Under the pieces are notes generated by a model. That model did no database searches and was not told where the DNA came from. It worked only from the letters and a program-made list of their open reading frames with translations. DNA of 64,000 bases, from assembly GCA_964235605.1 (NCBI GenBank), contig CAXSCR010000003.1:112275-176274 (forward strand). The letters are read 5' to 3'. Of the stretch, positions 2,527 through 50,130 are shown in pieces; the stretch's first letter is position 1, and each line of letters begins with the position of its first letter. Position numbers and translations under genes: made by a program. Origin of the DNA: an uncultured Cyclobacteriaceae bacterium. Its GTDB lineage: Bacteria > Bacteroidota > Bacteroidia > Cytophagales > Cyclobacteriaceae.

Positions 2527-3090
2527 TTATTTGTTATGACTTAATTGCTTTTGTTTTTTGAATTCTAATACCTCAGGTGTTTGGCGTTTCGTCACATCAA
2601 TTCGTTCATCCACTTTCTCTACCAATTTATCCTTACCGTAAATAAAATCTTGTCTTGCGTAATCCGTTGTTACCATGCGGTCTGTAAGAAATATGGCTTC
2701 TTTTGGACAAGCCTCCTCACATAACCCACAGAAAATACAACGCAACATATTGATCTCATACGTTGATGCATATTTTTCTTCTCGGTATAAATTTTCTTCA
2801 CCCTTTTGACGTTCTGCGGCAGTCATTGTAATAGCTTCTGCCGGACAAGAAACTGCACAAAGACCACAGGCCGTACAACGCTCTGCACCCTTTTCATCAC
2901 GCTTCAATACATGCTGACCTCTCCATATCTCACTAAACTCACGCGTCTTTTCAGGGTAGCGTACCGTGGCACTTTTCTTAAATAAATGTTTTATAGTTAT
3001 AGCAATGCCGGCAAGGACTGCAGGAAGATATATTCTTTCCCAGAAGTTCATCTCCTTGTCAACCACTACTTTCGATCTCTTTGTTAGCAT
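2527..3090 (-). CDS. nuoI: NADH-quinone oxidoreductase subunit I (2x 4Fe-4S ferredoxin)
   Basis: Two CxxCxxCxxxCP motifs are present: CTACGLCAVSCP and CIFCGLCEEACP. Confidence 0.95.
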   Translation of the reverse strand: MLTKRSKVVVDKEMNFWERIYLPAVLAGIAITIKHLFKKSATVRYPEKTREFSEIWRGQHVLKRDEKGAERCTACGLCAVSCPAEAITMTAAERQKGEENLYREEKYASTYEINMLRCIFCGLCEEACPKEAIFLTDRMVTTDYARQDFIYGKDKLVEKVDERIDVTKRQTPEVLEFKKQKQLSHNK

Positions 3091-3100
3091 TCTTTTCTTA

Positions 3101-3293
3101 GTTAATAGTTAATAGTTATCAGTTAATGGACCGATATCTACTTATATATTTGATAATTCCTTTATATCTAATGCTCAAACTCAATCATTCAATTCTCAAT
3201 CATTTTTGTAGTTCAGTACTTTTATTCTGTCATGCACTATTATTCACCCTTACTCAAACCACTATTAACTGATAACTTGTAACTATTAACTAT
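3101..3293. repeat. Heptad inverted-repeat element, nuoI|nuoH junction
   Basis: Left arm 3101-3127 is GTTAATAGTTAATAGTTATCAGTTAAT. Right arm 3261-3293 is ACTATTAACTGATAACTTGTAACTATTAACTAT, largely its reverse complement. The spacer is about 133 nt. The right arm contains the nuoH stop codon (3286-3288). Confidence 0.9.
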
Positions 3294-4326
3294 TTAAAGC
3301 AAGCACAAGTCCCGTAATTAATACATTCAATATGGACAATGGCAACAAGCCTTTCCAACCTAAATTCATCAGCTGGTCATAGCGGAAACGCGGGATAGTC
3401 CAGCGAACCCACATGAAGAAGAAGATGAAGAAGAATATCTTTGCAAAAAAGGCAAGGGATCCTAGTATGGTTAAAGTATTATGATCCAGTCCGAGATCAT
3501 TCATGAATGGGAAGTTATATCCGCCAAAATAAAGCGTAGCTATAACTGCTGATGAGATGAACATGTTGATGTATTCCGCAAACAGATAGAAACCAAGTTT
3601 CATACTGCTATATTCGGTATGATAGCCACCAATCAATTCGGTTTCGCACTCTGCAAGATCAAATGGTGTTCTGTTACATTCTGCGAATGCAGACACCAAA
3701 AATATTATAAAGCCGAGGGGCTGATACACTACATTCCAAAAATTCCAATCAGCACCGGCACCACCAGCCTGGCCTGCGCTTATCTCAGCTAAACTTAAAG
3801 TACCTGTCATCATTACAAAAGCGATAATGGAAAGGCCCATACCAATTTCATAACTGATCATTTGCGCTGAAGCACGAATGGCGCCCAATAATGAGAACTT
3901 GTTGTTCGAAGCCCAACCCCCTATCATAATACCATATACACCAATTGATACAACACCGAAGATATAAAGTATACCAATGTTAATATCCGTTATTTGTAAA
4001 TCGTACTCCGTATCTCCAATAACAATTGAGTTACCCCATGGAATAACTACACCAGTCATTAAAGCGGTAAGCATGGCGATGCAAGGGCCAGCAACAAAGA
4101 GAAACTTATTTGAAACATTGGGTATAATCTCTTCCTTCATGAAGAACTTTACACCATCAGCCAGTGGTTGAAGAATACCAAATGGGCCTGCACGATTTGG
4201 TCCTACCCTATCTTGTAGGAAGGCTGCCACTTTACGTTCTGCGTAAGTAGAATACATGGCAATAACCAACGTGATTACAAACACGGCCAGCACCAGAATA
4301 CTCTTATATATTAAAAAGTCAATCAT
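3286..4326 (-). CDS. nuoH: NADH-quinone oxidoreductase subunit H
   Basis: 346-aa polytopic protein with the NuoH/ND1 signature PFDLAECETELIGGYHTEYS. Confidence 0.95.
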   Translation of the reverse strand: MIDFLIYKSILVLAVFVITLVIAMYSTYAERKVAAFLQDRVGPNRAGPFGILQPLADGVKFFMKEEIIPNVSNKFLFVAGPCIAMLTALMTGVVIPWGNSIVIGDTEYDLQITDINIGILYIFGVVSIGVYGIMIGGWASNNKFSLLGAIRASAQMISYEIGMGLSIIAFVMMTGTLSLAEISAGQAGGAGADWNFWNVVYQPLGFIIFLVSAFAECNRTPFDLAECETELIGGYHTEYSSMKLGFYLFAEYINMFISSAVIATLYFGGYNFPFMNDLGLDHNTLTILGSLAFFAKIFFFIFFFMWVRWTIPRFRYDQLMNLGWKGLLPLSILNVLITGLVLALNS

Positions 4327-4329
4327 GTT

Positions 4330-5331
4330 TTAATTTGAAGGATTATGTTCAGGCAATTGTTTTCCTCGTTGATACTCGAGTTGTCTATCGATTTCAAGTT
4401 TTAATTTTTGAAGGTCGATCTTCTCATAATGATTCTGCGAAATAACAGAATTACGATCTATGTGACGTGGGCCTTCCACAGTCCAGTCGCTCATGTTTTT
4501 ATGATCGTAGCGACACGCGTTACATATAAATTCTTTCACTTCACTGTACTGATCTTTGCGAGCAGTTACACGAAGTACATCTTCACCTTTAGTCCAGAGC
4601 ACCACCTTACCACAGCACTTGTCACAGTTACGGTGGGCATCTAATGGCTTCGTGAACCACACGCGTGATTTAAATCTAAAAGTCTTATCAGTTAACGCCC
4701 CTACAGGACAAACATCAATCATGTTTCCAGAGAATTCATTTTCAACTGCTTTCTCAATATAGGTACTGATCTCTGACTTATCTCCCCTATTTAAAATACC
4801 ATGCACACGATTATCGGTAAGTTGATCGGCAACATAGGTACAACGGTAGCATAAAATGCAACGCGTCATGTGAAGTTTGATCTTATCACCAATATCTATT
4901 CTATCAAAAGTTCTTCTCTCCTCTTCGTAGCGTGTTTTAGCAGCGCCATGTTCGTAAGCCAGGTTTTGTAAATCACACTCACCAGCCTGATCGCACACCG
5001 GGCAATCAAGCGGGTGGTTTATCAATAAAAATTCTACCACACCTTTGCGGGCTTCCAACACTTCAGGTGAAATAAGGTTCTGCACCACCATTCCATCCAT
5101 AATAGGTGTACGGCAAGAGGCTACCAGCTTAGGCATAGGACGCGGATCTTTAGCAGATCCCTGCGTTACTTTAACAAGGCACACCCTACACTTACCACCA
5201 CTGTCCTTCAGGCTCGTGTAATAACACATAGCCGGAGGCACTGACGCGCCACCAATTTGCCGTGCAGCATTAAGGATACTTGTTCCATCCGGAACCTCTA
5301 CCTCTATGCCATCTATTGTTACTTTTGCCAT
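4330..5331 (-). CDS. nuoG: NADH-quinone oxidoreductase subunit G, short form (Fe-S N-terminal part only)
   Basis: Contains a 2Fe-2S motif (CYYTSLKDSGGKCRVC) and HPLDCPVCDQAGECDLQ. At 333 aa it lacks the molybdopterin-like C-terminal domain. Confidence 0.9.
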   Translation of the reverse strand: MAKVTIDGIEVEVPDGTSILNAARQIGGASVPPAMCYYTSLKDSGGKCRVCLVKVTQGSAKDPRPMPKLVASCRTPIMDGMVVQNLISPEVLEARKGVVEFLLINHPLDCPVCDQAGECDLQNLAYEHGAAKTRYEEERRTFDRIDIGDKIKLHMTRCILCYRCTYVADQLTDNRVHGILNRGDKSEISTYIEKAVENEFSGNMIDVCPVGALTDKTFRFKSRVWFTKPLDAHRNCDKCCGKVVLWTKGEDVLRVTARKDQYSEVKEFICNACRYDHKNMSDWTVEGPRHIDRNSVISQNHYEKIDLQKLKLEIDRQLEYQRGKQLPEHNPSN

Positions 5332-5337
5332 CGCTTT

Positions 5338-5370
5338 GTTAATAGTTAATAGTTATCAGTTAATAGTTAT
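5338..5370. repeat. Heptad repeat arm between nuoG start and the four-helix-bundle ORF stop
   Basis: Sequence is GTTAATAGTTAATAGTTATCAGTTAATAGTTAT. It supplies the TAA stop (5367-5369) of the 138-aa ORF and ends 6 nt from the nuoG ATG. Confidence 0.9.
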
Positions 5371-5783
5371 GGGCTAATCGGAATATCACCGTAATCTATT
5401 ACTGGTTCGTACACTTTATTCTGTGCCTTTGCTTTGGATAGATAATTAATAAATCCATTTAACAATGCTAAGCACTCTACAATCTCTTTTTTATAAATAT
5501 TCAGTTCGTCTTCTGAAATGTACTTTTCTTCTTTGGCGACAATTAGGTGATCAATAATTTCATACAATGATGCCCTGCTTTGTCTGCAATATTGAACATA
5601 CTCTTGATAATGATACCTCCCAAATCCTTCAGCTATGTTCGCTGTAACCGATCTTGAAGCCCTCGTTATCTGATCTACCAACCGAAACTTCTCTTCTAAT
5701 GGCAGCCGCTTTGTTAACGCGGAAAGTTTCATTCTCAAAGCTGCTGCTTTTTTCCAACAGTTAAGATCCTCGAAACTCTTCAT
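5367..5783 (-). CDS. Four-helix-bundle protein (23S rRNA intervening-sequence protein family, TIGR02436-like)
   Basis: Family-typical sequence: FEDLNCWKKA...QITRASRSVTANIAEGFGRYHYQEYVQYCRQSRASLYEIIDHL. It is inserted between nuoF and nuoG on the same strand. Confidence 0.85.
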   Translation of the reverse strand: MKSFEDLNCWKKAAALRMKLSALTKRLPLEEKFRLVDQITRASRSVTANIAEGFGRYHYQEYVQYCRQSRASLYEIIDHLIVAKEEKYISEDELNIYKKEIVECLALLNGFINYLSKAKAQNKVYEPVIDYGDIPISP

Positions 5784-5786
5784 TTA

Positions 5787-5969
5787 GTTAATGGTTAATG
5801 GTTAATGGTTATATGTTAATTGTGGTTACTAATATTTCTACTTGGTTTTAATCTATTTCAAGCAGGCTTAAATCTTTCTTCAATCTCATAAAGTTATGTC
5901 AGCAAAGTTTAACTATTAACTATTAACTATTAACTATTAACTATTAACTATTAACTATTAACTATTAAC
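5787..5969. repeat. Heptad inverted-repeat element, 4HB-ORF|nuoF junction, including 8.7 perfect tandem TTAACTA units
   Basis: Left arm 5787-5822 is (GTTAATG)n-like: GTTAATGGTTAATGGTTAATGGTTATATGTTAATTG. Right arm 5909-5969 is 8 full TTAACTA units plus TTAAC. The nuoF stop (5958-5960) lies inside the array. Confidence 0.95.
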
Positions 5970-7319
5970 AGTAACCAACTTCCCCGATCTAAACGGCTCC
6001 AAATGAAAGTGCTTCGGATCCATCACTTTCTCCGGGTACTTTACGTGGTATTCAAACTCTTCTCTGAAGTGACGGATTGCGCTGGCTACGGGCCAGGCTG
6101 CTGCATCACCTAGCGGACAGATTGTGTTGCCTTCAATTTTCTTGGCAACGTCTACCAGTAAATCAATATCACCCATGTGCCCGTGGCCATGCTCAAGACG
6201 ATGAAGTACTTTCTCCATCCAGCCTGTGCCTTCACGACACGGACTGCATTGACCACAAGATTCATGGTGATAGAAGCGTGAGAAGTTCCAGAGGTTACGA
6301 ACGATGCAAGCGCGTTCATCGTAAGCGATGAATCCACCTGAACCTAACATTGAACCACTTACAAAACCGCCTTCAGAGAGTGACTCGTAAGACATCAACC
6401 TCTTTTCTCCGGTAGCGGTTTTTAAAATTAAATCAGCAGGTAGAATTGGAACGGAAGAACCTCCAGGCACACATGCCTTTAGTTTACCACCATTCTGAAT
6501 ACCACCACACCATTCATCTGAATAAATAAATTCTTCTACAGACAAGCCAAGTTCAATTTCATAAACGCCAGGCTTGTTAATATTTCCACCCGCTGAAATC
6601 AGCTTCGTTCCAGTACTTCTTCCTATACCGATTTTCGCATATTCATCACCACCCATGTTTAGGATTGGAACAACAGCAGCAATCGTCTCTACATTATTTA
6701 CAACAGTTGGACTAGAATATAAACCTGCAATAGCGGGGAACGGTGGCTTCAATCTTGGAAGTCCACGTTTGCCTTCTAAAGATTCGAGTAAAGCAGTTTC
6801 CTCACCGCAGATGTAAGCACCAGCGCCTGGATGTACATACAGGTCTAATGAATACTCTGTACCTAAAATATTTTTACCAAGAAAACCAGCAGCGTAAGCT
6901 TCTTCAATTGCTTTTTCAAGAATGCGTACAATGTACATGTACTCACCACGAATGTATATGTATGATGCCTTGGCACCCAATGCAAAACTAGAAGTGATCA
7001 TGCCCTCAATCAAAAGGTGAGGGAGTTTTTCCATTAGGTAACGGTCTTTAAAAGTTCCAGGCTCACTCTCGTCTGCGTTGCAAACCAGATAACGTGGTTT
7101 CTCTGATTTACGATCGAGAAAACTCCATTTCATCCCAGCAGGAAAACCCGCTCCTCCTCTACCACGCAACCCAGACTTTTTCACTTCTTCCATAACAGAA
7201 TCAGGTGACATAGTCTTGAGCGCTTTTTCAACTGAAGCATAACCTCCCTTTTTCCGATAAACCTCGAAGGTCTGGATGCCAGGAACGTTAATGTGCTCGA
7301 GTAATAATTGTCTCCCCAT
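5958..7319 (-). CDS. nuoF: NADH-quinone oxidoreductase subunit F
   Basis: Contains GLRGRGGAGFPAGMKW (FMN/NADH site) and ESCGQCSPCREG (4Fe-4S). Confidence 0.95.
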   Translation of the reverse strand: MGRQLLLEHINVPGIQTFEVYRKKGGYASVEKALKTMSPDSVMEEVKKSGLRGRGGAGFPAGMKWSFLDRKSEKPRYLVCNADESEPGTFKDRYLMEKLPHLLIEGMITSSFALGAKASYIYIRGEYMYIVRILEKAIEEAYAAGFLGKNILGTEYSLDLYVHPGAGAYICGEETALLESLEGKRGLPRLKPPFPAIAGLYSSPTVVNNVETIAAVVPILNMGGDEYAKIGIGRSTGTKLISAGGNINKPGVYEIELGLSVEEFIYSDEWCGGIQNGGKLKACVPGGSSVPILPADLILKTATGEKRLMSYESLSEGGFVSGSMLGSGGFIAYDERACIVRNLWNFSRFYHHESCGQCSPCREGTGWMEKVLHRLEHGHGHMGDIDLLVDVAKKIEGNTICPLGDAAAWPVASAIRHFREEFEYHVKYPEKVMDPKHFHLEPFRSGKLVTVNS

Positions 7320-7324
7320 GGTTC

Positions 7325-7434
7325 GTTAATAGTTATCCGTTAATAGTTAATAGTTAATTGTTAATTGTTATACGTTAATTGTGTCATATCTTCTTCTTCC
7401 GCTCACTATTAACAATTAACCATTAACATCTAAC
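7325..7434. repeat. Heptad inverted-repeat element, nuoF|nuoE junction
   Basis: Left arm 7325-7380 is GTTAATAGTTATCCGTTAATAGTTAATAGTTAATTGTTAATTGTTATACGTTAATT. Right arm 7406-7434 is CTATTAACAATTAACCATTAACATCTAAC. The spacer is short, about 25 nt. The nuoE stop (7416-7418) lies inside the right arm. Confidence 0.9.
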
Positions 7435-7958
7435 TGAATATTCTCTCTCATATATGATGATCTTTTATCCGCTGCTCCCAACTTATCAATCAATGTGTCA
7501 ACTTTCTCTGGTGTTAAATTTTCATAGTAGTTAGCGCCACATTGTAACATGGGTGCAGTGCCACATGAGCCTAGACATTCAACTGTTTTCAAAGTGAACA
7601 TACCATCAGCAGAAGTCTCACCATCTTTAATGTTCAAGCGTTTTTCTATATGTTCAACAATATCTTCAGCGCCGCGTAACCAACATGGCGACGTACGGCA
7701 AACCTCGATCAAACACTTGCCTACAGGCTTTAGATTATACATTGAATAGAAACTTGCTACTTCATAAACCTCAATCGGCTTTATGTTTAGCAAAGAAGCT
7801 ACATAATCCATTGTTGCTGGACTCAACCATCCATCAAATTCAGACTGCGCCACATGTAACAAAGGCAACAATGCAGACTTTTCTTTTCCTACCGGATAGC
7901 GCGCGATAATTTTCTTTGCCAGGGTTAATGTTTCATCTCTGAATTTTACCACTTCCAT
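7416..7958 (-). CDS. nuoE: NADH-quinone oxidoreductase subunit E
   Basis: Thioredoxin-like 2Fe-2S motifs: CRTSPC...CLGSCGTAP. Confidence 0.95.
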   Translation of the reverse strand: MEVVKFRDETLTLAKKIIARYPVGKEKSALLPLLHVAQSEFDGWLSPATMDYVASLLNIKPIEVYEVASFYSMYNLKPVGKCLIEVCRTSPCWLRGAEDIVEHIEKRLNIKDGETSADGMFTLKTVECLGSCGTAPMLQCGANYYENLTPEKVDTLIDKLGAADKRSSYMRENIQLDVNG

Positions 7959-7964
7959 TCCTTT

Positions 7965-8132
7965 ATCAGTTATCAGTTATCAGTTAATAGTTAATAGTTA
8001 ATAGTTATCGTCTAACCTTAAATGCTTCACCTTAGCTTTTCTATTTATACTACTATCCCTATTCTAAATCTTTGCTACACTTATTCACTAACCCTATCCC
8101 ACAATTAACAATTAACTATTAACTATTAACTA
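7965..8132. repeat. Heptad inverted-repeat element, nuoE|nuoD junction
   Basis: Left arm 7965-8010 is (TATCAGT)3(TAATAGT)3. Right arm 8101-8132 is ACAATTAACAATTAACTATTAACTATTAACTA. The spacer is about 90 nt. Confidence 0.9.
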
Positions 8133-8134
8133 CC

Positions 8135-9352
8135 CTAAGCATCAAGCTCCCCTGCAATCACATTCATACTACTCATCGTCAGAATCGCATCTGACAACAT
8201 TGAGCCTTTAATCATTTCAGGATATGCTTGGTAATAAATAAAGCATGGTCTTCTGAAATGCAAACGGAATGGTGCTCTTCCTCCATCGCTGATTAAATAA
8301 AATCCAAGCTCACCATTACCACCTTCAACCGCGTGATATACTTCACCTTTTGGAACATCGGTTTCGCCCATAACAATTTTAAAGTGATAGATGAGTGCTT
8401 CCATATTATTGTAAACATCTTCTTTCGGAGGGAGATAAAATTCTGGAACTGAGGCATGGAACGGACCTTCAGGAAGTTTCGCTATGGCTTGTTTAATAAT
8501 ACTCAAACTCTGCCACATTTCTTCTTGACGTACCATGAAGCGATCATACACATCGCCATTAGTGCCTACCGGGATAATGAAATCAAAATCTTCATACGAT
8601 GAATATGGATTCATAACCCGTACGTCGTAATCAACACCTGCTGCCCTGAGGTTCGGGCCTGAAAAGCTATAACTAAGTGCCATCTCGGGTGTAATGCCGC
8701 CTACACCAATGGTTCTATCCATGAAAATCCGGTTGCGTTTCAACAGGTTCTCAAATTCTCTTAACACTTTAGGAAAATTATCCAGGAAGTCGTTAATCTT
8801 CTTCCACGCTTTTGGTGTGAAGTCGCGTTCAAAACCACCGATTCTACCGAGGTTGGTTGTTAAACGTGCACCACAAATTTCTTCGTAGATCTCATATACA
8901 AGTTCACGTTGCTGGAACAAATAAACAAACCCAGTAAGTGCGCCGGTATCAACACCAATTACTGCATTACAAACCAAGTGATCAGTGATACGCGCCAACT
9001 CCATAACGATAACACGTAAATATTGTACGCGCTTCGGAATTTCGACACCTATTAATTTTTCGACTGTCATGTGCCAGCCAATGTTATTGATTGGTGAGGA
9101 GCAGTAATTCATTCTATCTGTTAGCGGCGTAATCTGATAGAAAGGCCTGCGCTCTGCAAGTTTTTCGAAAGCACGGTGTATGTATCCGATAGTTGGTTCA
9201 GCCTCCACGATAATCTCGCCATCCATCTTCAGAACGTTCTGAAAAATACCATGGGTTGCAGGGTGTGTTGGCCCCAGGTTGAGATAGGAGTATTCCTTCT
9301 CTGCGGGTGTTACCGTTCCATTCGTGCTAATATTTTTACCTATATCCTCCAT
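8135..9352 (-). CDS. nuoD: NADH-quinone oxidoreductase subunit D
   Basis: 405 aa with an N-terminal [11 protein letters not shown] motif, in the position between nuoC and nuoE. Confidence 0.95.
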
Positions 9353-9870: not shown

Positions 9871-10414
9871 ATTTATTAAGCATGGCCTTATATTCCGGAG
9901 AATCTCTCCTTCTCAATGATTCAGTTTCAACCAAGTGTTGTATTTTAATTATTCCATCAATAATTTGTTCTGGGCGGGGTGGGCAGCCTGGTACATAAAC
10001 ATCTACAGGAATAATTCTATCGATACCCTGTAAAACACTATAGGTGTCAAATATTCCACCGCTTGAAGCACAGGCTCCAACCGAAAGTACCCACCGTGGT
10101 TCTGCCATCTGCTCATATACCTGGCGAAGTATAGGACCCATTTTCTTAGCGATGGTACCCATAACCATTAACAAATCTGCCTGACGTGGTGAAAAGCTTA
10201 AACGCTCAGAACCAAAACGGGCAAGATCATAATGTGCGCCCATTGTGGCCATGAACTCAATGCCGCAGCATGAAGTAGCAAATGGTAAGGGCCAAATCGA
10301 ATTTTTTCGGGCAAGTCCAACAGCTTTTTCAAGGCTCGTGGCAAAAAAGCCAGCGCCTTCTAGGCCATCTGGTCTCGCTGATACACTTACATTATTTAAT
10401 GATACTGGTTCCAT
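9857..10414 (-). CDS. nuoB: NADH-quinone oxidoreductase subunit B
   Basis: Contains the N2 cluster ligand motifs SCCGIEFMA and VPGCPPRPE. Confidence 0.95.
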
Positions 10415-10415
10415 A

Positions 10416-10796
10416 TTACTCCCACTTCAAAGCGCCTCTCTTTATTATATAGAAAAATCCAACTAACAAACATGCAATGAATACGATCATTTCAATAAAA
10501 ATTGCAATACCATTCTCCTTAAGAAGATCCCTAAAGAGCACCGCCCACGGATACATGAATATTACCTCCACATCAAACAATACAAATAAGATGGCTACCA
10601 GGAAGTACTTGATAGAGAATGGTATACGCGCATTACCCCGAGGTTCAATACCGCACTCGAAAGAATCAAGTTTGATTTTACCCTTTCTCTTGGGACCCAG
10701 CATATGGGTAGATACCATGGTTAACCCCACAAAACCAGCCGCCACAAAAAACATTAGCGCGATTGGTAAATACTCCACTAAATATTGCTCATCCAT
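10416..10796 (-). CDS. nuoA: NADH-quinone oxidoreductase subunit A
   Basis: 126 aa with three TM segments and the [12 protein letters not shown] motif. It is the first gene of the operon. Confidence 0.9.
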
Positions 10797-41199: not shown

Positions 41200-41712
41200 C
41201 TAATTCACTTTAAAAGCGACAGCTGTGTCTTCCCACTTTAATTCTAACGCGTCTTTTCCAACGGTGATGGTAAAGGTTTCAACAAAAGCACTGGTTTTAG
41301 TTGGTTTAACATTTACACGAAGCACATCATTTGCCTGTTTGTAACTATAAGCACCCCATTGCTTGCCATATTTTTGAAAGATGATGGTCCACTCAGCTTC
41401 TCCTGGAATTGTAAAGAGTTCATATTTTCCTGCTGGAAGATCTTTGCCTTCAATCTTTACTGCTTTATCGAATTCTATTGTGGTAGCTTCATTGGCACCT
41501 GTGCGCCATACTTCGCCGAAAGGTTCTTTGCCACCAATCATTTTTCTACCTCTTGCCGAAGGTGCAGAATAATCAACTTTAACTCTTACATCGCCAATAA
41601 TTCCTTCTGCGGTAGCAGGTGGACTGGGACGTTTACTTGCATCTTTTTGAGCTAGCGCGTTAAATGATAGTGAAGTGGCAATAAAAAATAAAAGGAAAGC
41701 GTATCGTTTCAT
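41200..41712 (-). CDS. DUF2911 domain-containing secreted protein
   Basis: Signal peptide present. Family-typical VKVDYSAPSARGRKMIGGKEPFGEVWRTGANEAT and LPAGKYELFTIPGEAEWTIIF. Confidence 0.75.
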   Translation of the reverse strand: MKRYAFLLFFIATSLSFNALAQKDASKRPSPPATAEGIIGDVRVKVDYSAPSARGRKMIGGKEPFGEVWRTGANEATTIEFDKAVKIEGKDLPAGKYELFTIPGEAEWTIIFQKYGKQWGAYSYKQANDVLRVNVKPTKTSAFVETFTITVGKDALELKWEDTAVAFKVN

Positions 41713-41889
41713 ATTATTTGATTTTATACGGTTTGTATACGGGTTTGTATACGTAAATGCCCCCGGTTGACCGGAGGCATTTAGAAAATATTTAAAAATT
41801 ACCTGTAAACTACCTTTCTAACGATATTACCTGCAATTTGGTTTGACAGATTCACATTAAATTTTATTCTTGAAAAATTGAGCTTGAAA

Positions 41890-46718: not shown

Positions 46719-47129
46719 TCAGTGCGCTGATATCCACTCTTCACCTTCTTCAAAAACTTCTTTCTTCCAAATAGGGGCTTTTGCTTTAAGTGTATCAATA
46801 ACAAATTGACACGCTTCAAAGGAGGCCTTTCTATGTGCTGTGGAAATTGCTACCACTACAGAAACTTCACCGGGCTTTAAATGACCGATACGGTGACATA
46901 TTGCCCATCCCTTAACCATCCATCGTTGGAGTGCTTCGTCTACTATTTTTTGAATTTCAGATACGGCCATTGATTCATAGGCCTCATATTCTAGCCTTAC
47001 AACACCTTTACCCGAAGCGGCAGCATTTCTTACCGTACCAATGAATACATTAACAGCTCCGGCTTCAGGGTGGCCGGCTTCTTTGATGACCTGTTGAACG
47101 TCAATTGGCTGGGGGGTTATGGTTATCAT
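46719..47129 (-). CDS. moaE: Molybdopterin synthase catalytic subunit MoaE
   Basis: Contains FIGTVRN, LEYEAYESMA, HRIGHLKPGEVSVVVAISTAHRKASFEA and PIWKKE. Confidence 0.9.
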   Translation of the reverse strand: MITITPQPIDVQQVIKEAGHPEAGAVNVFIGTVRNAAASGKGVVRLEYEAYESMAVSEIQKIVDEALQRWMVKGWAICHRIGHLKPGEVSVVVAISTAHRKASFEACQFVIDTLKAKAPIWKKEVFEEGEEWISAH

Positions 47130-47228
47130 TGTTGTTAATTGCTATCCGTTAATTGTTATCCGTTAATTGTTAATGTTAATCGTTAATAATCGTTAATCGT
47201 TATCAGTTAATTGTTGTCTGTTAATGTG
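47130..47228. repeat. Solitary degenerate heptad (GTTAATn) repeat tract immediately 5' of moaE
   Basis: Sequence is TGTTGTTAATTGCTATCCGTTAATTGTTATCCGTTAATTGTTAATGTTAATCGTTAATAATCGTTAATCGTTATCAGTTAATTGTTGTCTGTTAATGTG. It has the same motif family as the nuo junctions. No complementary arm was seen before dnaA. Confidence 0.85.
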
Positions 47229-47338: not shown

Positions 47339-48760
47339 TTAAGCAACACGCAGCTTTAATTTCTTTCCTAATTCTTCTACGGAAGCTTTAAAATTAGGAT
47401 CAGTCTTCATCATGTCTTCAACTGACTCGAGTGCGTGGATTACTGTGCTGTGATCACGACCACCAAAATTTCCTCCAATTAACGCAAGGGTAAGTTGGGT
47501 GTAACGCTTGCAGAAGTACATTGCTACCTGACGTGGAATAACGATTTCACGTTTCTTAACCTTGCCTTTCATGGCTTCGAGGTTAATTTTAAAATACTCT
47601 GATACTGTTTTTTGAATAAAATCAACGCTTACATCAGACTGAATTTCTTTGATAATATTTTTTAAGACCTCTTTCGCTAACTCCAAATTAATGTCCTTCT
47701 TTAATAAAGTAGCATGAAAGATCATGGAGTTCATTACACCTTCCATGTCACGCAAATTTGTGTCGACGCTGTAAGCAAGATATTCTGATACTTCAGTTGG
47801 AATTTCAATACCATCAGCAAGCATCTTTCTATTAATGATCGCTAATTTAGTTTCGAAGTCAGGTTCTTGTAAATCGGCAGTCAACCCCCATTTAAATCTA
47901 GACAGCAATCGTTCTTGGAAGCCTTTAAGATCGCGAGGAGGACAATCACTGGTCATAATAACTTGTTTGCCAGACTGATGAAGTTGATTGAAGATATGGA
48001 AAAACATTTCCTGGGTCTTCTCTCTCCCAGCAAGAAACTGTACATCATCAAGTATGAGCAGATCTACCTGTAAATAGAAATTTTGAAAATCTTGAAGTCT
48101 ATGGTTTTGTAACGCATTGAGAAACTGATTGGTGAAATCATTTTGATCAACATACAAAACTACCTTGCTCGGCATGTTGTTCTTAATCTCATTACCGATG
48201 GCTTGAACCAAGTGCGTTTTACCAACACCTACTCCGCCATAAAGCATCAACGGATTAAAAGAAGTAATGCCTGGTTTCTTAGCAACTGCCAATCCGGCTG
48301 ATCTTGCCAATCGATTGCAATCGCCTTCTACGAAATTGTCAAATGTATATGTGTTATTTAATCTTGAGTTAACAGTGAGCGGATTTAGCGCTTTAAAAGT
48401 AAAGGGTGTGTACTCATCAGAGAAGCCCCCATTGTTCATGGCGCTGCGCCTTGTGCCACCACCATTCGGATAGTTTACTGCCAATGGCGGATTGCTTGTG
48501 TTTCCGCTGTCAACAATAACAGAGTACTCAAGTCGACCCGTTGCACCTAAGACAGTATGAATTGCTTTTTTAAGAACAGGTACATAGTTATCTTCTAACC
48601 ATTCGTAAAAAAATTGAGAAGGCACTTGAATAGTAAGTACGTCTCCATCAACACGTAAAGGCGATATAGGCCTAAACCACGTATTGAAATTTTCGTCTCC
48701 TACGTTTTCACGTATTACTTCGAGACAGTCATTCCATACGGTGCCGCAGCTTACTTCCAT
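47339..48760 (-). CDS. dnaA: Chromosomal replication initiator protein DnaA
   Basis: AAA+ Walker A GGVGVGKTHL, LLILDDVQFL, and the C-terminal DNA-binding region GGRDHSTVIHA. Confidence 0.95.
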   Translation of the reverse strand: MEVSCGTVWNDCLEVIRENVGDENFNTWFRPISPLRVDGDVLTIQVPSQFFYEWLEDNYVPVLKKAIHTVLGATGRLEYSVIVDSGNTSNPPLAVNYPNGGGTRRSAMNNGGFSDEYTPFTFKALNPLTVNSRLNNTYTFDNFVEGDCNRLARSAGLAVAKKPGITSFNPLMLYGGVGVGKTHLVQAIGNEIKNNMPSKVVLYVDQNDFTNQFLNALQNHRLQDFQNFYLQVDLLILDDVQFLAGREKTQEMFFHIFNQLHQSGKQVIMTSDCPPRDLKGFQERLLSRFKWGLTADLQEPDFETKLAIINRKMLADGIEIPTEVSEYLAYSVDTNLRDMEGVMNSMIFHATLLKKDINLELAKEVLKNIIKEIQSDVSVDFIQKTVSEYFKINLEAMKGKVKKREIVIPRQVAMYFCKRYTQLTLALIGGNFGGRDHSTVIHALESVEDMMKTDPNFKASVEELGKKLKLRVA

Positions 48761-49032
48761 GGATTATTACTTATTTTGGATTCGGTTCCTGCTTAGAGGA
48801 AGGGGGACAAAGATGTAGAAAAAGAGTTTAAGAAAACAAGGGGAAGGGTGCTTGACTTTTTAGAAATATTTGCTTGCTAAATAAAAACCCATCTAAACCA
48901 CCATTGCGGACTAATAACCAACAAATTAAATTTTTTAAAAGTTATGTTCTGTTTTATTTACTTTGGTAGCGGGGCAAATTGGTGAAAAATCTATGCTGTT
49001 TACAGATAAAAATTAAATCTTAAAGAAAAGCA

Positions 49033-50130
49033 ATGACTTTTAACAAACTTTTATCCGAAACATTTCCCAATGCGGACAAAACTAAATGGCAAAAGGCTGC
49101 CTTATCGGAAATTCATGGAAACGTGATAGAATCTTTACAGTGGGAAACTTCTAACCTAAGATTTGATGCGTATTATGACCAAACAGATCTTTCAAAAATA
49201 AAATATCTTAATAATTTTCTTCTACAAGATAACGCCACAGAATATTCTGGACCAAGATCATGGAGTTCTATCGCTCACGTTCCTTTAAACGAAGATGCTA
49301 TAGCCAACCAACTTGCACTTGATCATTTAAAAAACGGGGCCGATGGCATAGTCTTTAATTTGCCCAATAGAAGTACTGATTTTAACGTATTGTTGGAAAA
49401 AATAGAATGGCCTTACTGTACTATATTATTTTTGGCACATAACAACTACCCACTTACATCACTTAACCATTATTTTGAGCAAAACTATAAAGACAAAGAA
49501 TTACCAGGTGCTATCTTTTGGTCGGATATAAAATCAATTAATGTTCCGCGTCAAGATATTGGAAAGTTTAAAAAATTAGGTCTCTATATTAACGCCTCGT
49601 CACCAGTAGAGGAAATAGCAGAGGCATTGACCCGGGCCGTGCAACTTATTGATCAATTTCAAGAAATATCAGGTTATACGCCAGAAAGAATAATAAATAA
49701 TATTGCCTTTTCTATTCCGATAAGCAATACAATGCTCGTTGAAGTAGCCAAATTAAAAGCACTTAGGATACTGTGGTATCAAATAACACAAGCATTTCAG
49801 CTCCCCTCCTATCAACCTGATGATTTATATATACACACTCGTTCAGAAGTATATGTAAACGAAAAATATCAACCGCATGGTAACATGTTGAGTAACACCA
49901 TTTCTTCCATGGCTGCTATTGCAGGTGGATGCAATGCACATACCATTTATGCAGCAAGTGATACAGAAAAATGGATGAACAGAATTGCCATAAATACTTC
50001 TACCATACTACGAGATGAAGCACACTTTGGAAGAGTAGCAGATGTCTTTGCGGGATCTTATACAGTTGACACCTTGGTTGACAAACTATCACATCAAGCA
50101 TGGGAAAAATTCAAATCCCAAATTAAATAA
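49033..50130 (+). CDS. mutA: Methylmalonyl-CoA mutase small (beta) subunit-like protein, short form
   Basis: It lies immediately upstream of the catalytic subunit. It has mutase-barrel-like segments ([19 protein letters not shown]). At 365 aa no B12-binding domain is evident. Confidence 0.65.

Follow-up and report, generated by a model that had tools for sequence, protein, structure and literature searches.

The spacers of the nuo operon in the DNA stretch analysed here (the window, 64,000 nucleotides from an uncultured Cyclobacteriaceae bacterium) are filled at five junctions with tandem heptanucleotide arrays, which belong to one class with the TAACTGA-type and STRR heptamers of Bacteroidota, Cyanobacteria and Beggiatoaceae, and two of the arrays enclose a gene of the PF05635 family, ORF138, located between nuoF and nuoG. 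The arrays are tied to PF05635 genes, and such genes elsewhere are bracketed as in the window. We propose, giving this reading about as much credence as doubt, that slippage-prone, lineage-specific heptad arms form RNA hairpins that resemble rRNA intervening sequences (IVS), and that these are probable processing or stability modules tied to PF05635.

The nuo genes are all on the minus strand, in the order nuoA-B-C-D, E, F, ORF138, G-H and I-J-K-L. TRF detects nine period-7 arrays in the five filled junctions (3099–3127, 3261–3294, 5338–5369, 5787–5820, 5909–5969, 7325–7379, 7408–7428, 7963–8009 and 8104–8132), and the one at 5909–5969 consists of 8.7 perfect TTAACTA units. Allowing up to 2 mismatches, the sequence TTAACTATTAACTA occurs 30 times in the window, 29 of them inside the five junctions, compared with 1.41 ± 1.14 in shuffled sequences, an excess of about 21-fold. 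The dominant unit is TAACTAT (TTAACTA), and the units TAACTGA, TAACAAT, TAACCAT and TAACGGA are also found, in arrays of 3–9. Read in either orientation, a tract of three or more heptads has stop codons in every frame. The remaining junctions are tight, with 1 nt between nuoA and nuoB, -14 between B and C, 2 between C and D, 3 between G and H, 12 between I and J and 0 between J and K, while nuoK and nuoL overlap. The first-pass annotation, which had described the period-7 arrays in five junctions, the stops in all frames and the tight spacing of the other junctions, is thus borne out on these points.

Between nuoD and nuoE the stop-proximal (5') arm at 8104–8132 (minus strand, as are all the features below) has three UAGUUAA and two UUGUUAA-type units, was found by TRF and is paired in the MFE fold; it begins 2 nt past the nuoD stop. 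It is followed by a unique, C-poor loop (8010–8103, 4 C in 91 nt) and by the start-proximal (3') arm at 7963–8009, (UAUUAAC)3(UGAUAAC)3, also from TRF, which ends 4 nt before the nuoE ATG and has its last three units unpaired in the fold. Between nuoE and nuoF the 5' arm (7408–7437, GUUAAUG GUUAAUU GUUAAUA, TRF) covers the stop of nuoE and the three codons before it, and the 3' arm (7322–7379, TRF and fold) has eight TAAC heptads and lies 5 nt from the nuoF ATG. The arm at the nuoF stop (5909–5972), a leader arm of (UUAACCA)-type units reaching the ATG of ORF138 (5784–5820) and the (UUAACUA/UGAUAAC)5 arm before nuoG (5337–5369) were all delimited by TRF and fold, and the first of these has about nine perfect UAGUUAA units. 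By the same two methods, the nuoH/nuoI junction has a 5' arm at 3261–3294 that covers the final codons and stop of nuoH, and a 3' arm at 3098–3127 that is 8–10 nt from the nuoI ATG, on either side of a unique, C-poor loop (3128–3260). The last residues of NuoE (VNG*), NuoF (VNS*) and NuoH (NS*) are accordingly encoded by the array itself. A sixth site, absent from the first-pass annotation, is found by TRF downstream of dnaA at 47132–47225, where about 12 TAAC-type heptads stop 1–2 nt before the moaE ATG; this array is unpaired (fold z 0.85). Six start codons (nuoE, nuoF, ORF138, nuoG, nuoI and moaE) thus have a G-poor array 0–10 nt upstream, and the earlier placement of the arms, near start codons at one end and over or just past stop codons at the other, agrees with the sequence.

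Inverted arms are present at four junctions (D/E, E/F, F/ORF138 and H/I), where the minus-strand RNA is predicted to fold with z-scores of -3.2, -4.7, -4.8 and -4.3 respectively, in line with the stems that had been suggested from the reverse-complementary arms. The ORF138/nuoG junction has a single arm only, with a fold z of 0.2, and the nuoF-to-nuoG stretch as a whole reaches -8. The suggestion that the loops of different junctions are related did not hold, since every pair of loops aligns locally with a score no higher than that of shuffled sequence; neither the rest of the window nor 280 loci contain another copy of a loop, and the window loops show no lag-7 periodicity. No internal promoter motif is found in the nuo junctions, and an intrinsic terminator was rejected because none of the junctions has a terminator-like site (a G+C-rich stem followed by a U tract). 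No Rfam family is found in the junctions, nothing between 2900 and 8300 matches with E below 0.4, and the only match at the gathering score in the window is one tRNA; rRNA is not found in the window.

ORF138 (5367–5783), left without identity in the first-pass annotation, belongs to PF05635/TIGR02436, the four-helix-bundle 23S rRNA IVS proteins of the S23p family (E 2.7e-31 in Pfam and 4.2e-28 in NCBIfam). A PF05635 ORF is located at nuoF/nuoG in all six homologues that were looked up, which are relatives within the set L260–L268. The dN of ORF138 is 0.15–0.28, similar to that of nuoE, while dS is saturated, and judged by these substitution rates the gene is under purifying selection; it is thus conserved like a normal host gene, which a selfish IVS fits less well. 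Both the identity of the gene and its synteny under purifying selection appear to be new. The arms around it (5337–5378 and 5929–5970) are 42 nt long, 86% complementary and 550 nt apart. The arm at the nuoF stop can pair with either 3' arm, and the leader arm of ORF138 matches it at six of seven positions, but its best partner is the arm before nuoG, so that ORF138 is predicted to be looped out; a similar long-range pairing around the PF05635 ORF is predicted in five of seven genomes.

The first-pass annotation knew of no described element with this structure, which is wrong: heptamer repeats have been described in PMC4679880 and heptamer hairpins in PMC2670836. MacGregor (2015) reported TAACTGA-type heptamers before starts and after stops in Beggiatoaceae, Cyanobacteria and Bacteroidetes, among the latter the Cytophagales member Flexibacter litoralis (PMC4679880). 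Like these, the window arrays are intergenic tandem 7-nt units with a TAAC core, including TAACTGA itself and single-base variants, in a Bacteroidetes host, and in both cases the 'forward' repeats lie a few nt from starts and the 'reverse' repeats right after stops, with stops in all frames and strain differences in steps of 7 nt. They differ in having mainly the unit TAACTAT (TTAACTA), in being concentrated in one operon, in occurring as inverted hairpin-forming pairs, where a single indirect repeat, in BOGUAY, is reported in PMC4679880, and in their link to a PF05635 gene, a family that is not mentioned in that paper. The cyanobacterial hupS-hupL spacer contains a heptamer (STRR) hairpin, which has been suggested to influence the stability of the transcript or to couple translation (PMC2670836). 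STRR are likewise 7-bp tandem repeats in operon spacers with a possible hairpin between two cistrons, but the window arrays are from another phylum, have other unit sequences and fill five junctions of one operon with arms that adjoin or overlap the neighbouring stop and start codons. The STRR consensus units of heterocystous cyanobacteria are CCCCAGT, TTGGTCA and CAACAGT, and the TTAACTA-type units of this Bacteroidota host do not correspond to them. REP/BIME, REPIN and Correia-type repeats are also extragenic inverted repeats that are co-transcribed in operons, and some of them are RNase III targets or have a stabilising effect on mRNA, but they are families of conserved sequence whereas the window arrays are tandem heptads; no similarity of the arrays to REP/BIME, REPIN or Correia-type sequences was found, and no link to a RAYT or transposase was seen.

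The nuoF-to-nuoG segment also resembles the IVS in the 23S rRNA of Coxiella burnetii. There RNase III cuts a terminal stem of 28 bp, and the loop holds an S23p ORF with two or three strain-variable heptamers ahead of its ATG (PMC4990558). In both, a PF05635 ORF is enclosed in the loop of a long stem, heptamers of variable number directly precede its start, and ORF-bearing and ORF-less forms exist side by side. The window element is in an mRNA operon and not in helix 25 or 45 of 23S rRNA, its stem arms are themselves heptad arrays, and its ORF is under purifying selection with clade-wide synteny, whereas the Coxiella ORF is decaying (PMC4990558). The nesting of ORF138 between inverted heptad arms in the manner of such an IVS appears to be described here for the first time. 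The RNase III processing or stability module suggested in the first-pass annotation gains support only by analogy, from the nesting of the gene in a 42-nt stem as in the RNase III-cut IVS of Coxiella; the hairpins are probably RNase III substrates.

The GTTAAnn units after stops and the nnTTAAC units before starts form heptanucleotide simple-sequence arrays, and in the mechanism that we propose these are resized by slippage. The arms should pair within the polycistronic nuo transcript into AU-rich stems of 20–45 bp, looping out either the PF05635 ORF (from nuoF to nuoG) or a loop without an ORF (D/E, E/F and H/I), and the looped-out segments might be the mRNA counterpart of the ORF-bearing and ORF-less intervening sequences of rRNA. 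The stems would most likely be cut by RNase III, or else act as modules for processing or stability that split up the transcript of the operon, and the unpaired, G-poor rest of the start-proximal array could serve as an unstructured leader for Shine-Dalgarno-less initiation. The folding, cleavage and expression effects of the nuo hairpins are predictions from the nucleotide sequence.

Much of the behaviour of the arrays would also be expected from neutral or selfish simple-sequence expansion only, by slippage at harmless gene ends and with arm pairing as a by-product that has no role in the RNA, a possibility to be taken seriously though we think it well short of probable. In two close assemblies, L264 and L265, the ORF protein is identical while the arrays differ by one heptad (61 and 68 nt) and by three heptads (49 and 70 nt), a growth or shrinkage by whole heptads such as replication slippage would produce. 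Of the tandem arrays found in the window and in 40 Bacteroidota nuo loci, 19 have period 7, three have period 8 and none has 5, 6, 9, 10 or 11, and this exclusivity points the same way. Arrays start from seeds at gene ends, and the relative L258 has junctions of 11–13 nt holding single TTAACGG-type units. They are absent in relatives at 83–87% protein identity, and the unit sequences vary by lineage. The D/E junction is 176 nt in the window, 25 in L260 and 5 in L266, and the G/H junction is 119 nt in L260 but 3 nt in the window; the named relatives of the window NuoE are Ohtaekwangia, Fulvivirgaceae and Chryseolinea, all Cytophagales. A lack of presence/absence polymorphism in relatives had been named as an observation that would speak against mobile or structured elements, but both the junctions and the heptad counts vary, and the whole-heptad difference between two close assemblies together with the variable hairpin-bearing junctions in relatives appears to be new. 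Hairpins are not kept at given junctions throughout the phylum (81 junctions, median fold z -0.75, 11% below -3), the (TTAACTA)n arrays of metagenome contigs are for the most part unpaired, and the arms pair no better than arrays with permuted unit order, so there is no fine-scale covariation for the stems.

Expansion alone does not account as easily for the polarity of the arrays. Of 75 TAAC-reading arrays in metagenome contigs, 50 have their 3' end directly at a gene boundary and 12 their 5' end. All detected pairs, four in the window and eight in metagenome contigs (8 and 16 arrays when counted strand-wise), are GTTAA...TTAAC, and no reverse-configured pair was found among them. The arrays always point outward to the flanking genes, which at a junction of co-directional genes gives an inverted pair. 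Arrays before starts have less G than C and those after stops more G than C, and this also holds for other, unrelated heptads. In addition, six genomes with saturated synonymous sites have kept GTTA- and TAAC-type heptads at the borders of nuoF, the ORF and nuoG, and the arrays associate with PF05635 genes, with a heptad type that co-varies with the protein. That arrays abut gene ends with a fixed polarity also appears to be new.

The association with PF05635 genes was seen in a sample of 14 plasmid genes, picked by protein similarity alone and 13 of them cyanobacterial, where heptad arrays are present in 17 of 28 adjacent spacers compared with 7 of 36 others (Fisher p 8e-4), an excess that appears not to have been reported before. 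The similarity of the PF05635 proteins tracks the heptad type across genera. This indicates that the link is general and that PF05635 genes lie inside operons, between inverted heptad arrays. PF05635 genes and heptad arrays might even be one system, although as a whole this seems rather unlikely: the gene would be a cassette that is bounded by inverted heptad arrays, inserts in operons and rRNA and is looped out and processed as RNA, the heptamers would be bound by its pentameric protein, and ORF-less hairpins and solo arrays (STRR, TAACTGA) would be satellites or binding sites. The operon sites named for such a cassette are nuoF/nuoG, cas10/cmr3, cas6/cas4 and parA/parB.

It is less likely still that the arrays are sites in RNA or DNA where a protein specific for the repeats binds, the prime candidate being the pentameric PF05635 protein of the operon, and that nuoE, F, G, I and moaE make up a small post-transcriptional regulon. 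A TAACTGA-binding protein, possibly mobile, was postulated by MacGregor (PMC4679880), which agrees with this. The far higher frequency of arrays beside PF05635 genes than beside others, the same heptad family with closely related proteins of different genera, the single heptad dialect that each genome has at all its junctions, and the unpaired array at moaE would also be consistent with binding sites. The sample is small, however, an ORF and arms that move together as a cassette explain the co-variation equally well, and the Avd-type relatives of PF05635 bind nucleic acid non-specifically.

An initiation enhancer had also been among the first suggestions. We consider it improbable that the start-proximal arrays are primarily initiation leaders or enhancers for Shine-Dalgarno-less Bacteroidota ribosomes, with an upstream ribosome that melts the hairpin as it terminates and thereby couples translation. 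The arrays do end close to the ATG and are G-poor, the 5' arms overlap upstream stop codons, and the array is unpaired beside nuoE and nuoF, where opening of the nuoE initiation region should cost only 3.3 kcal/mol. At H/I the nuoI region is sequestered, and the predicted cost of opening it, 15.2 kcal/mol, drops to 6.0 when a terminating ribosome occupies the nuoH stop, but of the junctions tested a single one shows such coupling. Sequestration is inconsistent: nuoE and nuoF have none, and it is strong at H/I, ORF138 and nuoG. Upstream of nuo start codons in 39 Bacteroidota loci there is no enrichment of TAAC (observed/expected 1.02), and two thirds of the boundary-abutting arrays in metagenome contigs follow stops and do not precede starts.

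A DNA-level MITE family, with the heptad arrays as terminal inverted repeats and a transposase acting in trans, was among the first suggestions and has inverted arms, presence/absence polymorphism, an inner motif GTTAATnGTGGG common to several elements and, in L260, two loop sequences shared between junctions, one of them a loop end of 26 nt (p<0.002), in its favour, but it is very improbable, since the window loops are unrelated and unique with no conserved core, loop ends are shared only in L260, no target-site duplication is evident in the junctions, where arms that abut or overlap stop codons leave no clear flank to compare, the arms overwrite the ends of coding sequences and stop codons and grow from seeds that relatives also carry, solo arrays of the same polarity are common, and lengths change in 7-nt steps.

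STRR- and TAACTGA-type heptanucleotide repeats and the PF05635 "IVS protein" family have been known for decades from Cyanobacteria, Bacteroidota and some Proteobacteria, and to our knowledge no function has been assigned to either. The window unites both in one essential respiratory operon, that of complex I in a member of the Cytophagales, where the arrays overwrite the last codons of genes and shift in length by 7 nt between close strains. Contigs often end within TAACTGA-type repeat regions (PMC4679880), and such arrays can therefore affect assembly as well as gene calling.

The nuo genes are all located on the minus strand, with nuoA at 10416–10796, followed by nuoB and nuoC, nuoD (8135–9352), nuoE (7416–7958), nuoF (5958–7319), ORF138 of 138 aa (5367–5783), nuoG (4330–5331), nuoH (3286–4326) and nuoI (2527–3090), and beyond this nuoJ, nuoK and nuoL in that order. 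As described in the first-pass annotation, heptad arrays of the TTAACTA type fill the five junctions D|E, E|F, F|ORF, ORF|G and H|I. Tandem Repeats Finder detects nine period-7 arrays, every one within these junctions, and the 14-mer TTAACTATTAACTA, allowing up to 2 mismatches, is present in 30 copies in the window vs 1.41 expected, with 29 of the 30 in the five junctions. The gene coordinates confirm that the other nuo junctions are tight or overlapping. In mRNA sense a paired junction reads stop-(UAGUUAA)n-loop-(UUAACUA)n-0 to 10 nt-AUG, with a stop-proximal 5' arm and a start-proximal 3' arm. In nuoE, nuoF and nuoH the 5' arm extends over the end of the gene, and the C-termini of these proteins (VNG*, VNS* and NS* respectively) are therefore encoded by the arrays. 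The inferred NuoG is short, 333 aa, and matches approximately positions 1–266 of a 606-position NuoG model with the C-terminal part absent; its length is similar, 334–335 aa, in all close relatives.

No element with this structure was known to the first-pass annotation, a statement that fails since such heptamers have been published. TAACTGA direct repeats occur in Beggiatoaceae, 15 Cyanobacteria and 5 Bacteroidetes (MacGregor 2015, PMC4679880), STRR heptamers form hairpins between hupS and hupL in cyanobacteria, with a proposed role in transcript stability or translational coupling (PMC2670836), and a Nostoc preprint describes heptamers close to start codons. Most TAACTGA repeats lie a few nt before a start codon, and they show 7-nt indels between related strains, and Flexibacter litoralis has one set of seven, reversed, directly after a stop codon (PMC4679880). 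TAACTGA units are present also in the arrays of the window, and the dominant unit here, TAACTAT, differs at two positions. The set of junction arrays is a real and unusually dense case of an already known repeat class.

Inverted arms at four junctions, as first proposed, are borne out by folding: the z-score is -3.2 for D|E, -4.7 for E|F, -4.8 for F|ORF and -4.3 for H|I, while ORF|G has one arm only. A mirrored order of variant units in the two arms, examined in the manner of a covariation test, was rejected, as pairing did not exceed that of permuted arrays in any of the 15 testable elements; the complementarity is thus a property of the heptad family only. The loops of different junctions had been thought related, but their alignment within the window does not exceed that of shuffles; nor are they decayed heptads (the lag-7 signal is absent) or dispersed repeats, each being unique in the 2.6 Mb of DNA compared. 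Neither internal Bacteroidota promoters (TAnnTTTG) nor terminators were found on the coding strand in the junctions, and no Rfam family was matched there. Many 5' arms have a G-rich variant heptad with the motif GTTAATnGTG(G/A)G at their inner end, located at 8098–8109 and 7402–7413 in the window, at 3816–3827, 5355–5366 and 6950–6961 in the close relative L260 and at 3196–3207 in L261, and it is also found inside arrays of the unrelated metagenome contigs L095 and L099.

Arrays are not confined to nuo. The sixth array of the window, an unpaired TAAC-type array of about 12 units at 47132–47225 on the minus strand, precedes moaE (46719–47129, minus), ending 1–2 nt before its start and lying downstream of dnaA (47339–48760); no inverted partner was found for it. 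Upstream of dnaA, 48761–50041 is a 1281-nt gap lacking ORFs of at least 100 aa, which may be the replication origin region, and a 12-nt direct repeat, TATACGGGTTTG, is present in 2.5 copies at 41725–41753 directly upstream of the gene at 41200–41712. Scanning for (TTAACTA)3 in metagenome contigs gave at least 120 loci, and the neighbours are genes of many kinds, for instance tig-clpP-clpX-lon, indicating that the arrays are not nuo-specific. On contigs with prokaryote-like coding density, among the matches listed, 50 of 75 TAAC-reading arrays have a gene boundary at their 3' end (33 antisense stops and 17 sense starts) and 12 of 75 have one at their 5' end. All detected pairs among the matches listed, four in the window and eight in metagenome contigs (8 and 16 arrays respectively when counted strand-wise), have the order GTTAA...TTAAC, with none reversed. 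Arrays preceding a start have less G than C and those following a stop more G than C, and unrelated heptads elsewhere in Bacteroidota follow the same rule. TAAC was rejected as a phylum-wide start-proximal motif, with an observed/expected ratio of 1.02 in 204 spacers. (TTAACTA)3 is also present in 56 IMG/VR contigs (L201–L256), many of them low-G+C giant-virus MAGs; no inverted pairs were found in these, and the sites may be ordinary AT-rich microsatellites.

One database protein, from a contig of 197,937 bp, is 100% identical to the window NuoE; the hits that follow, with at most 84% identity, are named Ohtaekwangia, Fulvivirgaceae and Chryseolinea, all Cytophagales. TTAACTA arrays are absent from the 40 Bacteroidota nuo operons compared, many of which have the same layout with other heptads, such as TAGATTT/AAATCTA in Flavobacterium hydatis. 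The stop-array ... array-start arrangement with unrelated, species-specific heptads was seen in L011, L012, L017, L018, L021, L022 and L023, where the units are TAGATTT/AAATCTA, GTTTCAA/TGAAACC, AGCTAAC, CATTGAA/TTCAATA, AAGAATT/AATTCTT, ACGATTG and ACCACCC. The intergenic tandem arrays of these 40 loci and the window have period 7 in 19 cases and period 8 in three, with none of period 5, 6, 9, 10 or 11. That any one nuo junction has a hairpin conserved across Bacteroidota was rejected, their occurrence being only sporadic.

Among close relatives (L257–L268) the junctions vary in length, and the presence/absence polymorphism proposed as a check was found: G|H measures 119 nt in L260 vs 3 nt in the window, D|E is 176 nt in the window, 25 in L260 and 5 in L266, and H|I is between 27 and 195 nt. 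At orthologous nuo junctions hairpins are gained and lost. In L258 and L259 (83% NuoE identity) the junctions are 11–13 nt; in them nuoF is preceded by single units of the TTAACGG type and nuoG by three TAAC heptads, and these units are seeds of the arrays. L264 and L265, with an identical ORF protein, differ by one heptad upstream of the ORF and three downstream. Loops at orthologous junctions are not conserved between relatives, and within L260 elements at different junctions have loop ends in common (p<0.002). In L257 (83% NuoE identity) nuoD|E and nuoE|F contain a different repeat, GGAGAAGGATTTAGGATGAGG, in place of heptads (9898–10000 and 10544–10652).

ORF138 encodes a four-helix-bundle protein of the PF05635/TIGR02436 ("23S rRNA intervening sequence protein", S23p) family. 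All six homologues looked up (65–78% identity) are located between nuoF and nuoG, and the dN of 0.15–0.28 is near the nuoE value while synonymous sites are saturated, indicating that the ORF is a conserved part of the operon and is kept by purifying selection. No relatives were found in viral contigs. At the nuoF stop, the arm of nine units is complementary to the arm before nuoG over 42 nt (86%) at a distance of 550 nt, and is predicted to pair also with the (UUAACCA)-type leader of ORF138 itself; pairing of the nuoF end with the nuoG start is predicted in five of seven genomes. In the window ORF138 is nested between inverted heptad arms. In the 23S IVS of Coxiella, RNase III cuts a terminal stem of 28 bp whose loop contains an S23p ORF, with 2–3 strain-variable heptamers before the ORF ATG (PMC4990558), and nuoF-ORF138-nuoG shows the same layout with a PF05635 ORF within the stem arms. 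In Bacteroidota nuoF|nuoG is a hotspot of gene insertion, where the gap measures 376–3630 nt (L009, L013, L020, L023, L024, L032, L034, L037 and L038); the insert in L032 is a PDDEXK_3 (PF13366) ORF bracketed by a 31-nt, 84% inverted repeat, and others encode an ORF6N protein (L038) and a GDSL lipase (L024).

A tblastn search of plasmids gave PF05635 relatives in Cyanobacteria and Riemerella only, and 14 loci were read. The usual layout is stop-(G-rich heptad)n-ATG ORF stop-(complementary C-rich heptad)n-ATG of the following gene. In cyanobacterial plasmids the ORFs are found inside operons, between cas10 and cmr3 (type III-B CRISPR), cas6 and cas4, and parA-like and parB, each flanked by heptad arrays (L269 3992–4348, L277 1501–1860 and L273 3992–4354). 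At the 14 loci a period-7 array is present in 17 of the 28 spacers adjoining the ORF and in 7 of the 36 others (p 8e-4, Fisher odds ratio 6.4). Periods of 5, 8 or 9 are absent among the arrays, and the single period-6 array lies away from the PF05635 ORF. In pairwise comparison protein similarity follows heptad type across genera: 90% identity where both have GGGTGTA, 80% with GGCAGAA/TTCTGCC in both, 74% where both are of TTAGC type, and 72% between GGGAAAA and GGGAACA. Enrichment of PF05635 in contigs selected by (TTAACTA)3 was rejected, with just three more ORFs among the matches listed, two of them heptad-bracketed. A connection of PF05635 to heptamer repeats or nuo operons is absent from MacGregor 2015 (PMC4679880) and the literature searched.

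The arrays are slippage-prone heptad simple-sequence repeats with a fixed polarity at gene ends, a strong pairing potential and an association with PF05635 genes. In the polycistronic nuo mRNA the arms would form AU-rich stems of 20–45 bp, and these would, by analogy with rRNA IVSs, probably be RNase III substrates or processing/stability modules. The predicted cost of opening the initiation region is 3.3 kcal/mol for nuoE and 4.4 for nuoF, where the adjoining G-poor units are unpaired and could keep the region open, and 15–18 kcal/mol for nuoI, ORF138 and nuoG, whose initiation regions would be sequestered. Translational coupling through melting of the stem by the terminating ribosome is supported in the model at H|I only, with little effect at nuoG and ORF138, while nuoE and nuoF are already open. 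The arrays could also be neutral products of slippage, putative binding sites of the PF05635 proteins, initiation enhancers or a MITE family, and these four alternatives are not mutually exclusive. The value of the finding lies in the link of heptad repeats to the IVS-protein family, exposed by the follow-up of these junctions, which makes both problems, the repeat class and the protein family, testable.
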